From contig DUII01000092.1 in assembly GCA_013330365.1 (NCBI GenBank), forward strand, positions 21,225-60,050: a DNA stretch of 38,826 bases, given 5' to 3'. This DNA comes from Thermococcaceae archaeon (lineage in GTDB: Archaea; Methanobacteriota_B; Thermococci; Thermococcales; Thermococcaceae). The notes under the pieces were generated by a model. It was not told where the DNA came from and did no database searches. It saw only the letters and a list, made by a program, of their open reading frames with translations. Shown here piece by piece: positions 1,748 through 6,801 of this stretch. The position numbers and the translations under genes are program-made. Positions within the stretch are counted from its first letter, which is position 1. Each line of letters starts with the position of its first letter.

Positions 1748-1840
1748 AGGCGATGCTTATGAGGGGGGATCGAGTTCTCCACAGCCTGGCACTCCTCTTA
1801 TGCTGAGTCTATTAGCTGTCCCCCTAGCTTCGATTCTGAA
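1748..1840 (+). ncRNA. Structured GC-rich leader or small RNA upstream of leuS (possibly the Thermococcales SscA RNA)
   Basis: GC-rich island in AT-rich intergenic DNA. GGATCGAG (1767-1774) is complementary to TTCGATTC (1829-1836); AGCTG/TAGCT hairpin at 1814-1829; G tract 1762-1769 is complementary to TCCCCCT (1819-1825) or CTCCTC (1792-1797). The SscA identity is from recollection and unverified. Confidence 0.6.
1753..1806 (+). CDS. Putative Leu-rich leader peptide MLMRGDRVLHSLALLLC
   Basis: ATG at 1753 (at the predicted TSS) or 1759 (preceded by AGGCGATG); TGA at 1804-1806. 6 of 17 codons are Leu, including CTC-CTC-TTA at 1792-1800. Lies directly upstream of leuS. Confidence 0.45.
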   Translation: MLMRGDRVLHSLALLLC

Positions 1841-1899: not shown

Positions 1900-4776
1900 A
1901 TGGTAGATTTCAAGGCTATTGAAGAAAAATGGCAGCAGAAGTGGCTGGAAGAAAAGGTATTCGAACCTCAGATAGATGAAAAGAAGCCAAAGTTCTACAT
2001 AACGGTTGCATTCCCCTACTTGTCAGGCCACCTTCACGTGGGACATGCAAGGACCTACACTATACCTGACGTTATTGCAAGGTTCAAGAGGATGCAGGGA
2101 TACAATGTCTTGTTCCCAATGGCGTGGCATATAACCGGCTCTCCAATAGTCGGGATAGCGGAAAGAATAAAGCATAGAGATCCCCAGACAATCTACGTTT
2201 ATAGAGATGTCTACAAAGTTCCAGAGGATATTCTATGGACATTTGAAGATCCAGTGAATATAGTTAAGTACTTCATGAAGGTCGCAAAGGAGACTTTTAT
2301 TAGAGCTGGTTTTAGTGTTGACTGGAGCAGAGAATTCCACACGACGTCGCTCTTTCCTCCGTTCAGTAAGTTTATCGAGTGGCAGTTCTTGAGATTAAAA
2401 GAAAAAGGGTTGATCGTTAGGGGAACCCACTACGTCAGATGGGATCCAGTTGTTGGAACCCCCTTGGGAGATCACGACCTGATTGAGGGAGAAGATGTAC
2501 AGATACTGGATTACATTCTGATAAAGTTCGTTCTTGAAGAGGAAGGCGAAGTTTACTATCTACCTGCGGCAACTCTAAGGCCCGAAACCGTTTACGGAGT
2601 AACCAACATGTGGTTAAATCCCGAGGCAACTTACGTGAAAGCCAGAGTTAAGAGCGGAGACAAGGAAGAGAAATGGATAATAAGCAAGGAAGCCGCTTAC
2701 AAGTTGAGCTTCCAAGATAAGGATACTGAAGTTCTGGAAGAGTTCAAGGGAGAGAAGTTAATTGGAAAGTGGGTCAAGAACCCGGTAACTGGAGATGAGG
2801 TAATTATTTTGCCCGCTGAGTTCGTTGATCCAGATAACGCTACCGGAGTAGTCATGAGCGTTCCTGCACATGCACCCTTCGATCATGCAGCCTTAGAGGA
2901 CATAAAGAAGAACACAGAAATTCTGTTGAAGTATGATATTGATCCAAGGATCGTTGAAAACATAAGCTACATCTCCCTGATTGAGTTGGAGGGCTATGGT
3001 GAATTTCCGGCTGTTGAAGAGAGTGAAAAGCTTGGAGTAAAGAGCCAAAAAGATGTGGAAAAACTTGAACAGGCTACAAAAAACATCTACAAAGCTGAAT
3101 ACCACAAGGGCATCTTCAAGATTGAGCCCTACAAAGGAAAACCCGTTAACGAGGTAAAGGAGCTAGTAGCTAAGGAGATGTTCGAAAAAGGAATAGCTGA
3201 CAGGATGTATGAATTCTCGGACAAAAACGTCATCTCAAGGTTTGGAAACAGGGCGGTTATAAAAATAATCCACGATCAATGGTTTATCGACTACGGAAAC
3301 CCAGAATGGAAGGCAAAAGCAAGAGAGGCTTTGGCGCAAATGAAAATCCTGCCGGAGTCAAGAAGGGCACAGTTTGAAGCCATAATAGAGTGGCTCGACA
3401 AGAAAGCCTGCGCGAGAAAAGTCGGCCTTGGAACTCCTTTACCGTGGGATCCGGAGTGGGTGATCGAAAGTCTGAGCGACTCAACAATTTACATGGCTTA
3501 CTACACCATAGGCAGAGCCGTAAATAAGTATGGCATTAAAGGAGAACAGCTAATCCCAGAAGTTTTTGACTACATATTCCTTGAGAACTTCAGTGAGGAA
3601 AAAGAAAAGCAGCTAAGCGAAAAAACAGGCATTCCAAAGGAAGTTATAAGAGAAATGAAGGAAGAATTTGAATACTGGTACCCGCTGGACTGGAGATGCT
3701 CGGCTAAGGACTTAATTCCAAACCACTTAACGTTCTTTATCTTCAACCACGTTGCCATATTCAGAAAAGAGCACTGGCCGAAAGGAATAGCGGTCAACGG
3801 CTTTGGAACCCTTGAAGGACAGAAAATGAGCAAGAGCAAGGGGAACGTGCTCAACTTTATCGATGCCATTGAAGAGAACGGTGCAGATGTGGTTAGACTT
3901 TACATCATGAGTCTAGCAGAGCACGACAGCGACTTTGACTGGAAGAGAAGTGAAGTGGGCAAATTAAGAAAGCAAATAGAGAGATTCTATGAGCTGATAA
4001 CTGAATTTGCCAAATATGAGGACAAAGACGTTGAGCTAATGGACATTGACAAGTGGCTCTTGCACAGAGTTAACAAAGCCATAAAAGGCGCCACTGAGGC
4101 ATTGGAGGAATTTAGAACAAGAACGGCTGTTCAATGGGCTTTCTACAGCATACTGAACGACTTAAGATGGTACATGAGGAGAACAGAAGGAAGGGATGAT
4201 GAAGCGAAGAGGGCTACTTTAAGGAGACTTGCTGATATCTGGGTTCGCTTGATGGCTCCGTTTACACCACACATAGCTGAAGAACTTTGGACAAAGCTCG
4301 GTGGAAAGGGCTTTGTAAGCCTTGCCAAGTGGCCAGAGCCGGTTGAAGAATGGTGGAACGAAACAATAGAACTTGAGGAGGACTACATCAAGGCACTAAT
4401 CGATGATATAAAGGAAATTATCACCGTTGCAAAGCTCGAAAATGCAAAGAGAGCCTACATCTACACAGCTGAAGAGTGGAAGTGGAGAGTAGCAGAAATA
4501 GTTGCGGAGAGGAAGGACTTCAAGGCAGCGATGAGTGAAGTAATGAAAGACCCAGAGATGAGAAAGCGTGGTAAGGAAGTTTCAAAGCTGATTCAAAAGC
4601 TTGTCAAGGAGAGAGCTTTTGAACCCAAGCGCATCGATGAGGAGAAAGCCTTAAGGCAGGCAAAGGACTTCATAGAACGCGAGACTGGGCTGGAAATAAT
4701 CATAAACCCAGAGGAGGACAAGGGTGGAAAGAAGAAGCAGGCAATGCCGATGAAGCCTGCAATATTTGTGGAGTGA
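1900..4776 (+). CDS. leuS: Leucine--tRNA ligase (archaeal type)
   Basis: [13 protein letters not shown] (HIGH motif), KMSKS, CP1 editing motifs ATLRPET and [15 protein letters not shown], archaeal C-terminus [11 protein letters not shown]; GGAGG RBS. Confidence 0.98.
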
Positions 4777-4785
4777 GTTCTAGCT

Positions 4786-4804
4786 TTCTACCTCTTTTTC
4801 TCTT
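4786..4804 (+). terminator. Pyrimidine/oligo-T terminator after leuS
   Basis: TTTCTACCTCTTTTTCTCTT about 10 nt after the stop codon, in a convergent intergenic region. Confidence 0.6.
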
Positions 4805-4860
4805 AAGAATATTCTAAAAAGGAGAAAAGCGGCATTAAAGACCGAGCTCAAAATTCGAAA

Positions 4861-5412
4861 TTATGAGTTTACTTGAAACCTTTTTATCGTATCAATGTAA
4901 AACGGGGCTGTTGCAAATACAGAGACGAGCTCTGGGATTGCTACTCCCTCTGGAATATTGTACGCAAAATGAATGAGCCACGCCAGTATCGCAACTGTTA
5001 GAGCAGGAATAGGCAAATAACTTCTAAAGTAGACCCCATAGGCAACTAGGAATACTGCAAGGGAGAGAAAGAACGCCACCGAGACTTTGAAGTGCAGCCC
5101 CCTGTAGATTTCATCAAAAACAGCCACCAGAATTAGCGTAAACCCAACTAAGAATCCCACGGCAGAAAAAGCTTTGCTGGTTTTGTATATGCACAGTGCT
5201 GAAACGTATATGATAAGAGCCCCTCCGAGACTCAAGCCAAAGTTAAATATCGGCGCAACGGAGCTTCTTGTGGCATGTCCAAGATCGCTTAGGGCGTTGT
5301 TTGTGATACTGAACCAATCTGAGAGAAGTATTGCTATTGCAATTGATATTAAAGGTATTGCTATTGAGAGATACGCCAGGTATAAACAGGGGGCTTTATT
5401 TATTGCTTTCAT
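4861..5412 (-). CDS. DUF998-family membrane protein
   Basis: About six hydrophobic segments; NNALSDLG and IFNFGL motifs; conserved His in GLHFKVS. Confidence 0.8.
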   Translation of the reverse strand: MKAINKAPCLYLAYLSIAIPLISIAIAILLSDWFSITNNALSDLGHATRSSVAPIFNFGLSLGGALIIYVSALCIYKTSKAFSAVGFLVGFTLILVAVFDEIYRGLHFKVSVAFFLSLAVFLVAYGVYFRSYLPIPALTVAILAWLIHFAYNIPEGVAIPELVSVFATAPFYIDTIKRFQVNS

Positions 5413-5475
5413 GGTTTTGACTTGGCACCAACCTAAATAAGGTTTTTTTGGAGAAATTTAAAATTAAAGAGGGGA

Positions 5476-6801
5476 TCAGAACTTCAAGACCCTTGCTAGA
5501 ACTACCAGTGGATCCCAAACCGGGGCAAAAGGTGGTGCATAGGCTAAATCGGCAAAGAAGAGGTCTTTTGTTGTAAATCCTGCTTGTAAAGCTACTGCAA
5601 AAGCATCCACTCTTGGAAGTATCTCTGCTCCAACTGCCTGTAAGCCTAAGAACCTTCCGTTCTCTTTGTCTGCTACAGCTTTGAGCCATATCTTCTTTCC
5701 GCCTGGATAATAATGGGGTTTTGTCCTTGCCTCTATGAATGCCGTCTTAACATCATATCCTTCTTTTAGTGCTTCTCCTTCTGTTAGCCCGGTTTTCCCA
5801 ATTTCAAGATCCATGAATTTGGTTATGGCCGTTCCAAGAACTCCTGGAAAGGTTATGTCAACACCCGCTATGTTGCTTCCCGCTACGTAGCCCATCTTGT
5901 TACCCGGTGGAGCCAATGGCACCCATACCCTTCTGCCAGTGATCAAATGTTTTGTCTCGGCAACGTCTCCAGCAGCATAGACATTCTCAACGCTTGTTTG
6001 CATTCTCTCGTTTGTCCATATTGCTCCAGTTTCTCCTATCTTAACTCCCAGTTGTCGTGCAAGCTCTGTGTTTGGCTTGATTCCAGTGGCTATGATGACT
6101 AGATCGGCTTTATACTCCCCTGCATCAGTGACTACCTTCTCTACCTTCTCTTCTCCTTCAATCCTAAGGGTTGCCTCTTCCAGACGGAGGTTTAGGTGTT
6201 CCCTGAGTTTTGCCTCTACTATATCGGTGATTTCCTTGTCAAAGGTTTTTCTTAAGACCCTCTTACTTCTGCCGATTAGTGTTACATTCTTCCCCTGAAC
6301 CACAAACGCTTCGGCCATCTCAAGTGCTATATAGCCAGTTCCAATCACCACAACGTTCCTTACATCATTTTTCTCCATATATTCTTTTATTGCAAGCGCA
6401 TCTGGAGGCAGGTCTGCTGTAAAAACTCCCCTCAAATCTACACCCTCTATTGGCGGTACTTGGGGAGAGGCACCGTTTGCAAAGACCAGGTAGTCCCACT
6501 CGTAGGTTTTCTCTTCACCATTCTCCCTTACTCTCACACTTCCCTGCTCAACTTCTATCACTTCTGCATTCAAGTGCAGGTCAATTCCTCTCTTTTTGAT
6601 GAAAAACTCGGGTGGATAGTGCATAAGTTTCTCCTTTGGAGAAATTCCTTCAACAACATAAGGCACTCCACAGGGGGCATGACTGACCCATTCAGTCGCT
6701 TCAAACACCTTTACATCCCATTCAGGTTTCAGCCTCTTCACTCTTGATGCGGTGCTCATTCCAGCAGCTCCGCCACCTATGATAACAACTGTCTTTTTCA
6801 T
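5476..6801 (-). CDS. cdr: CoA-disulfide reductase / CoA-dependent NAD(P)H sulfur oxidoreductase (NSR)
   Basis: GGGAAG FAD motif, SHAPC redox Cys, [11 protein letters not shown](P)H motif, [12 protein letters not shown]-terminal YAPPF. Start at ATG 6801 after a GGTGAT RBS. Confidence 0.95.

Follow-up and report, generated by a model that had tools for sequence, protein, structure and literature searches.

Bacterial leader-peptide attenuators and T-boxes match the level of an aminoacyl-tRNA synthetase to the charging of its tRNA through a cognate codon in the leader, and bacterial T-boxes carry a single fixed cognate triplet before the synthetase gene. In archaea, control of the attenuator or riboswitch kind had no direct support at the time when transcription starts were mapped in T. 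kodakarensis, according to that study (PMC4247193). The long 5' UTRs of Thermococcales synthetase genes have been suspected of being regulatory, with no mechanism offered, in two studies (PMC3849170, PMC4247193), one of which noted long leu-, val-, and trp-synthetase leaders in P. abyssi, likewise without a mechanism (PMC3849170). Several described translational systems bear a likeness to the leader analyzed here. In the +1 autoregulation of prfB (release factor 2), as is proposed for this leader, a short frame-0 ORF contains an internal Shine-Dalgarno (SD) tract immediately ahead of an NUU codon in the P site, and a slow A-site codon serves as the sensor; the distance from SD tract to P codon in prfB is 3 nt (PMC5009743). 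The likeness extends to particular letters (PMC5009743), with CUU found in 22 of the 49 unique leuS leaders compared here and CUU_U at many winged-helix loci, and with GGGGG and GGAGG interchanging in the SD tract. In the ketolide-induced leader frameshift of ermC, a shift within the uORF causes the spacer to be translated and the downstream gene to be activated (PMC5009743), and in hungry-codon frameshifting the ribosome slips at an A-site codon that is short of charged tRNA (PMC5009743, PMC8211752). A 2016 review knew no example of hungry-codon frameshifting being put to productive use under starvation (PMC5009743), and for cellular genes a 2021 review of archaeal recoding gives a single example, the -1 frameshift of fucA1 (PMC8211752). 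Archaeal termination-reinitiation couples translation through a stop codon that overlaps or lies near the next start (PMC6728339, PMC10666635). No report of the frameshift-leader system described here was found in the open-licence literature.

The leader lies in a window of 38,826 nt (the whole stretch of DNA that was analyzed) from a genome placed in the Thermococci by its relatives and by named matches. It lies within the 203 nt that separate a split MFS transporter gene (405-1696) from leuS (1900-4776, + strand), which encodes an archaeal leucyl-tRNA synthetase of 958 amino acids (TIGR00395 leuS_arch, 1184.5 bits against a cut-off of 648.5) and is preceded by a GGAGG ribosome-binding site (RBS; 1888-1892, + strand). 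A BRE/TATA-like archaeal promoter, CCAAAAGA TTTAAATA (1714-1729, + strand), with a TATA-like box at equal distance in the homologues, predicts a transcription start at ~1752, so the stretch is the 5' leader of leuS; the median distance from TATA box to transcription start in T. kodakarensis is ~23 bp (PMC4247193). A second TATA-like box, CAAACTCTTTTAAAA (1853-1867, + strand), is kept in the alignment rows of the organism's own genus and may be an internal promoter, possibly giving basal leuS expression that bypasses the leader. TK1874 of T. kodakarensis is presumably trpS. The mapped starts of T. kodakarensis yield 5' UTRs of 128 nt for leuS, 103 nt for ileS, 161 nt for valS (a secondary start), and 94 nt for TK1874 (PMC4247193 supplements), all of which fall inside the leader-length ranges measured across the homologues; the primary start mapped for valS lies 29 nt upstream (PMC4247193 supplement). 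Supplement file 8 of the same study records a secondary start 141 nt upstream of metG and an antisense start inside the leuS leader (PMC4247193). RNA-library contigs from a relative begin at 1756-1793 and continue into leuS, which is weak evidence from one study (four runs of one sample), contigs giving no start, strand, or level.

The MFS gene is in two pieces in different frames, with a stop at 975-977 and the second piece at 1073-1696, and is either a pseudogene or the product of an assembly error. At a related locus (L004), gcvH (3-302 of the window, minus strand; Pfam GCV_H) immediately precedes the leader, which makes the MFS gene of the window look like an insertion. The leuS leader of another genome (L020, genome G002) is the same as that of the window up to ~1869, yet the LeuRS it precedes is 85% identical (trpS 99%, valS 100%); the leuS coding part seems, from these identities, to have been exchanged, with the leader's +1 frame still ending at +4.

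The leader opens with a uORF, MLMRGDRVLHSLALLLC (1753-1806, + strand), whose conserved start is the second ATG (1759), the first ATG being replaced by ATA in many ileS copies. An internal SD-like tract, AGGGGGGATC (1762-1771, + strand), is the G tract of the original prediction and is predicted to form a duplex of -15.2 kcal/mol with the 16S 3' end, which for all duplex predictions was taken from five relatives. Leader comparison places a predicted shift site at 1774-1779 (+ strand), with GTT in the P site and CTC (Leu, codon 7 counted from ATG 1759) in the A site. This single CTC (1777-1779) is the conserved Leu position; the Leu-rich tail of the uORF, LALLL (1786-1800, + strand), which is able to pair with the 5' tract, is limited to the organism's own genus and a few relatives. 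The stop codon of the uORF is TGA, TAA, or TAG depending on the homologue, and no stop was seen at codon 5, though most codons there are one change from a stop. The synonymous stops and the absence of a stop at codon 5 point to translation, and 1753/1759-1806 is a real uORF carrying the Leu codons.

The first seven codons recur as a cassette, ATG-NNN-RG(G/T)-GRN-NNN-NTT-[codon], which in leuS leaders stands right behind the promoter as GATGCNN ATG AGG RGG GAN NNN NTT CTC. The leuS-type motif occurs in 97 of the 99 genomes of the order at about two copies each, the second copy lying before ileS with ATC in that position. Throughout the unique leaders, codon 7 specifies the amino acid of the enzyme encoded downstream (Leu before leuS, 49/49; Ile before ileS, 30/30; Trp before trpS, 45/45). 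It is CTC in 48 and CTT in one of the leuS leaders, ATC in 29 and ATT in one of the ileS leaders, and TGG in all 45 trpS leaders, always behind NTT; the P-site codon ends in TT in all 124 leu, ile, and trp leaders and is GTT in 27 and CTT in 22 of those before leuS. The trpS loci, found by protein search, have the form ATG NNN GGT GRT NGY TTT TGG, which lacks a G run, and 36 unique valS leaders carry a variant, GTG GTG NNN ATC GTC. When codon 7 was left free in the search pattern, 73 loci matched, 47 in the Thermococci and 26 elsewhere. The former comprised 27 with a Leu codon (26 before leuS and one with incomplete downstream sequence) and 20 with an Ile codon before ileS; the latter had scattered codons, as chance matches. 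The leuS cassette of families f3, f5, and f6 ends in TTT|TTA or TTT|TTG at all nine of their loci (9 of the 14 loci outside the organism's own family), and this replacement of CTC in distant families means that the amino acid is kept, not the letters.

The cassette is not universal. In families f2 (two of two loci) and f4 (three of three loci), leuS lacks it, as do 7 of the 44 parsed valS loci and two further ones. It was also absent in the own genome before the genes taken for serS, proS, glyS, hisS, tyrS, aspS, and pheS (from Pfam matches and N-terminal sequences), in the upstream region of one metS locus (L307), at seven other loci with one-mismatch motif matches (L169-L175), and at L187. 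The own genome's assembly lacks the DNA upstream of thrS and metS. Scanned for the cassette, the whole genome yielded 70 matches, of which the length filters left 14, and leuS, ileS, and a winged-helix gene were among the matches listed. Behind two looser matches (G000:C176 and C181) lie long +1 frames of more than 300 codons, with a stop 12 nt upstream; these two may overlap the starts of ordinary genes by chance. A GGTTAG-like motif is also present in ileS, trpS, and valS leaders (e.g., L184, L109, L139), ~20-100 nt before the start codon.

Downstream of the cassette in the window, the +1 frame is open for 42 codons (1778-1906, + strand) and ends at a TAG (1904-1906) that overlaps the leuS start (ATGGTAG). 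In the window alone this openness is unremarkable (P = 0.12), and the case is comparative. In all 160 unique leaders (75-197 nt), a +1 frame read from the cognate codon meets its first stop at a position from -20 to +32 nt relative to the synthetase start; frame 0 ends 48-167 nt before that start, and the A-site codon is a sense codon in all 160. Between the cognate codon and ATG-20, these leaders contain 438 stops in frame 0, none in frame +1, and 272 in frame -1. For 51 representatives below 70% identity the respective counts are 134, 0, and 88, and dinucleotide shuffles lead to an expected open +1 frame in 16.3 of the 51; the probability product of 10^-28 for +1 openness is overstated, since the kin are related and the -20 cut-off was chosen after seeing the data. 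For comparison, any one frame is open in 25-53 of 277 ordinary upstream regions taken from this genome. The overlap of the +1 frame with the gene reaches +23 (leu) and +32 (val). Leader length modulo 3 is 0 or 2 in 153 of the 160 leaders, and in the seven whose +1 frame would fuse with the enzyme the stop comes at -3, -6, or -15. Outside the 160-leader count are the leuS loci L013, L021, L083 (stop +4), L092 (incomplete), and L308-L312 (stops -5 to +5), the trpS loci L197, L198, and L199 (variant, +8), and the valS loci L138 and L148-L152 (four with a leader, +26/+31). Judged by the leader comparison, the open +1 frame downstream of the cassette appears to be selected.

The short upstream frame of this leuS leader likely acts as a leucyl-tRNA sensor, and the mechanism that we regard as probable is an SD-assisted +1 ribosomal frameshift at the hungry cognate codon, which would deliver ribosomes to the synthetase start. 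We infer for this mechanism that the uORF is translated, that ribosomes pause and slip on it depending on tRNA charging, and that the slip is coupled to leuS initiation. Translation would begin at ATG 1759, and as long as charged tRNA-Leu is plentiful it would end in frame 0 at TGA 1804. When charged tRNA-Leu is short, the ribosome would pause at CTC 1777 (codon 7); the SD being engaged and the tRNA on NUU wobble-paired, a +1 slip would be helped by the internal SD tract. The shifted ribosome would then follow the open frame across the leader as far as the leuS start and there reinitiate or unmask the RBS, and the additional synthetase would restore charging. The comparison itself gives the cassette, the match between codon 7 and the enzyme, a frame 0 that closes early, a +1 frame free of stops up to the start codon, and the 16S complementarity.

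The predicted SD duplexes range over the cassettes from -8.6 to -16.1 kcal/mol and end 0-4 nt before the P codon, in a register that differs from that of prfB. CUU|C, CUU|U, and UUU|U would allow the P codon to re-pair in full after a +1 step, GUU|C (the window) and UUU|A only in part, and the valS site not at all; the GUU of the window would re-pair on UUC with a first-position mismatch, as would 27 of the 49 leuS leaders. G34 tRNAs for Leu, Val, Ile, and Phe were found in a congener (30 of 45 tRNA loci read). Several observations count against the frameshift reading: the valS site ATC|GTC offers no re-pairing and the GUU|C of the window is imperfect; the SD duplex, which ends 2-4 nt before the P codon, uses the inner 16S tail and, at the CCUCC register, its distance is by our own count longer than the 3 nt of prfB; some overlaps are long for termination-reinitiation; the leuS RBS is strong and might also be open to frame-0 or free ribosomes, its predicted accessibility being 0.02 in the window and 0.30 in the mean, and the exact helix with the downstream C tract that hides it in the window is kept in 2 of the 49 leuS leaders; the second TATA-like box may bypass the leader; an in-frame ATG occurs at two of the 30 winged-helix loci; and the kin are not independent.

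Set against the described systems, the cassette would work like prfB on the input side and like the ermC leader on the output side, but it is a member of neither type: its A site holds a sense codon for the amino acid of the downstream enzyme, whereas that of prfB holds a stop. The +1 product of a synthetase leader would be a throw-away peptide that ends on the gene start, whereas in prfB it is the protein; the present system is also archaeal, and its SD register and spacing differ. The trigger of ermC is an antibiotic, whereas here a shortage of aminoacyl-tRNA is predicted and the cassette recurs before several genes. Unlike in termination-reinitiation, the upstream frame would here be entered only by a frame change, and the overlaps run from -20 to +32; those of +23 (leu) and +32 (val) are longer than the typical -1 and -4 (PMC10666635). 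In contrast to attenuators and T-boxes, no codon run, terminator/antiterminator, or T-box fold was found.

Two further kinds of locus serve as natural controls. The third motif match leads to a winged-helix gene (Pfam HTH_5, ~70-90 amino acids; own copy at G000:C115:15359-15563, L252), orthologue-level matches of which occur in five genera, with weak ones only in genus g3. In the 30 best loci by protein similarity (L228-L257), codon 7 is TGC after NTT without exception, the protein lies in the +1 frame, and that frame contains no ATG, GTG, or TTG in 28 of the 30 (the other two have an in-frame ATG). At seven of these loci a +1-frame TAG stands directly ahead of the shift site, which leaves NTT|TGC as the only point of entry. 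The TGC could be fixed by the protein instead of by Cys sensing. At L018, a TnpB-like ORF (4364-5647, minus strand; Pfam Cas12f1-like_TNB) lies inside the leuS leader without a start of its own and in the +1 frame of the cassette, which in this single genome runs through 428 codons without a stop and closes at +11 of the leuS ATG; the TnpB-like ORF was not seen at the leuS leader site in four congeners. Taking all of these genes together, we lean toward the view that a portable seven-codon cassette in the Thermococci gauges the charging of individual tRNAs, switching on LeuRS, IleRS, TrpRS, and ValRS by bringing +1-shifted ribosomes to their start codons, with the winged-helix factor made only when cysteinyl-tRNA is short.

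The alternative that survives best, itself unlikely, is a stall-driven RNA switch, in which a ribosome paused on the Leu codons changes a helix and thereby frees the leuS RBS or prevents termination, with no frameshift. The original prediction had proposed such a switch from mutually exclusive pairings in the leader, and its segments are in place and complementary: 1761-1769 (GAGGGGGGA), 1792-1797 (CTCCTC), 1819-1826 (TCCCCCTA), 1814-1829, 1781-1785 with 1815-1819, and 1767-1774 with 1829-1836. The C tract TCCCCCTA (1819-1826, + strand) is conserved and complementary to the 5' G tract and, in the window, to the leuS RBS. Of the two partners offered to the G tract, TCCCCCT holds up, the helix being kept in 35 of the 49 unique leuS leaders (register 1762-1768), which favors a switch; no change on both sides of this helix was observed among the 49. 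The alternative helix with CTCCTC is kept in only 13 of the 49, and the 12 of 12 own-genus loci tested that have it are all among these 13. The AGCTG/TAGCT hairpin that the suggested pseudoknot requires, the ACAGC/GCTGT pairing, and the GGATCGAG/TTCGATTC pairing are each kept in two of the 49 leaders, namely that of the window and a near-identical one, and the pseudoknot and three of the five pairings were rejected as conserved features from these pair counts. The region as a whole folds no better than chance (z against shuffles of -0.00 for 1753-1845, 0.16 for 1759-1840, and -0.05 for 1753-1899), and the RNAalifold consensus of the leuS leaders amounts to one 4-bp hairpin and a 2-bp stem (-2.5 kcal/mol).

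The further proposal that a ribosome would mask some of the partners, as a switch requires, holds on the folding predictions for the window and fails for the conserved codon. The predicted accessibility of the window's leuS RBS is 0.02 at 37 C and 0.25 at 75 C; with a mask over 1777-1812 these values rise to 0.23 and 0.52. Over the leuS leaders, mean accessibility is 0.30 for the naked RNA, 0.26 with a ribosome stalled at the conserved codon, and 0.31 with one at the stop (means that have no reference set from ordinary genes), and the ile, trp, and val leaders show the same pattern. That the conserved-codon mask does not open the RBS counts against plain attenuation. A switch is further favored by the valS leaders, with their GGTGGTG and CACC(A/G)CC tracts, and by the leaderless short-ORF attenuators described in mycobacteria (10.1101/834739); it leaves unexplained the absence of +1 stops against 272 in the -1 frame, as well as the winged-helix gene without a start. 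Most leaders have one or two cognate codons and not a run (the leuS uORF has one invariant cognate control codon, the Leu run occurring only in the own genus), and a bacterial pattern scan found no terminator-like hairpin. Pair counts and masked folding gave overall no conserved mutually exclusive helices that switch with a stall. Since masking LALLL opens the RBS in the window, the switch originally proposed may be a local, genus-level second layer, and on these folding predictions such an RNA switch may sit on top of the frameshift leader. In the valS leaders (L139-L165), the 5' GGTGGTG tract stands opposite the downstream CACC(A/G)CC tract in parallel to the G and C tracts of the leuS leaders, and the downstream tracts of both read Pro-Pro in the +1 frame.

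It is quite improbable that the +1 frame is reached without a starvation-dependent P-site slip (e.g., by frameshifting at a fixed ratio, by a tRNA that binds out of frame, by slippage of the polymerase on the G or T runs, or by restarting on a non-standard codon), so that the leader would set a low constant level. The poor re-pairing at GUU|C and its absence at the valS site would fit this explanation, as would the existence of G6 and T4-T5 runs and the in-frame ATG of two of the 30 winged-helix loci. However, codon 7 follows the amino acid of the enzyme across four genes and through synonymous Leu codons, none of which a constant mechanism needs; the TAG between the G run and the shift site at seven winged-helix loci excludes G-run slippage there, and the trpS leaders have no G run. 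A T-box-like leader, in which uncharged tRNA binds the RNA directly and codon 7 is the specifier, is very improbable. It would account for a single cognate triplet, in most cases with C as its last letter, being fixed in front of synthetase genes, but this triplet shares its reading frame with an ATG, the uORF stops vary synonymously with none at codon 5, and the frame asymmetry would go unexplained. A T-box riboswitch was rejected as an identity for the stretch, there being no Rfam match and no conserved structure of the stem I/antiterminator kind (RNAalifold -2.5 kcal/mol).

That the stretch is the SscA RNA or a constitutive C/D guide RNA has next to no probability: its SscA-like length and the resemblance of ATGCTGA (1800-1806) and CTGA (1836-1839) to C and D boxes are outweighed by the lack of an Rfam match, by the poorly aligning SscA elsewhere in the genome, by the lack of conservation of the second CTGA among leuS leaders, and by the RNA-library contigs of the relative that run from 1756-1793 into leuS (one study, weak). 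The suggested identity with SscA is refuted, RF00063 having no match in the window at the gathering score or at E values up to 10; the true SscA of this genome lies on another contig (G000:C24:3226-3326; 63.5 bits, membership threshold 60 bits) and before a different gene. The gene downstream of SscA in this genome is one that we take, from its N-terminus, to be that of EF-1alpha, and it is the window leader that precedes leuS. In T. kodakarensis, the aEF-1alpha gene carries SscA in its 5' UTR (PMC4247193), and SscA and translational coupling have been treated elsewhere (PMC3124441, PMC6728339). SscA is likewise a Thermococcales 5' leader of ~100 nt before a translation gene, with a different locus, gene, and sequence. 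The own SscA starts with a three-codon frame, ATG AAC TCA TGA (L031:1591-1602, minus strand), just behind a TATA-like box. What stands of the earlier claim, in spirit, is a leucine-linked and probably translated leuS leader.

If the proposed mechanism is true, the long 5' UTRs of synthetase genes in the Thermococcales would have a defined mechanism, which can be tested by single-base changes in the genetically tractable T. kodakarensis or P. furiosus. It predicts that the winged-helix gene is a mis-annotated transcription factor whose production depends on frameshifting. The leader would then be a natural, productive use of hungry-codon frameshifting, the case that the 2016 review called unknown (PMC5009743). 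It would also be an archaeal counterpart of T-boxes and attenuators, giving these organisms a previously unreported archaeal way to gauge the charging of their tRNAs.
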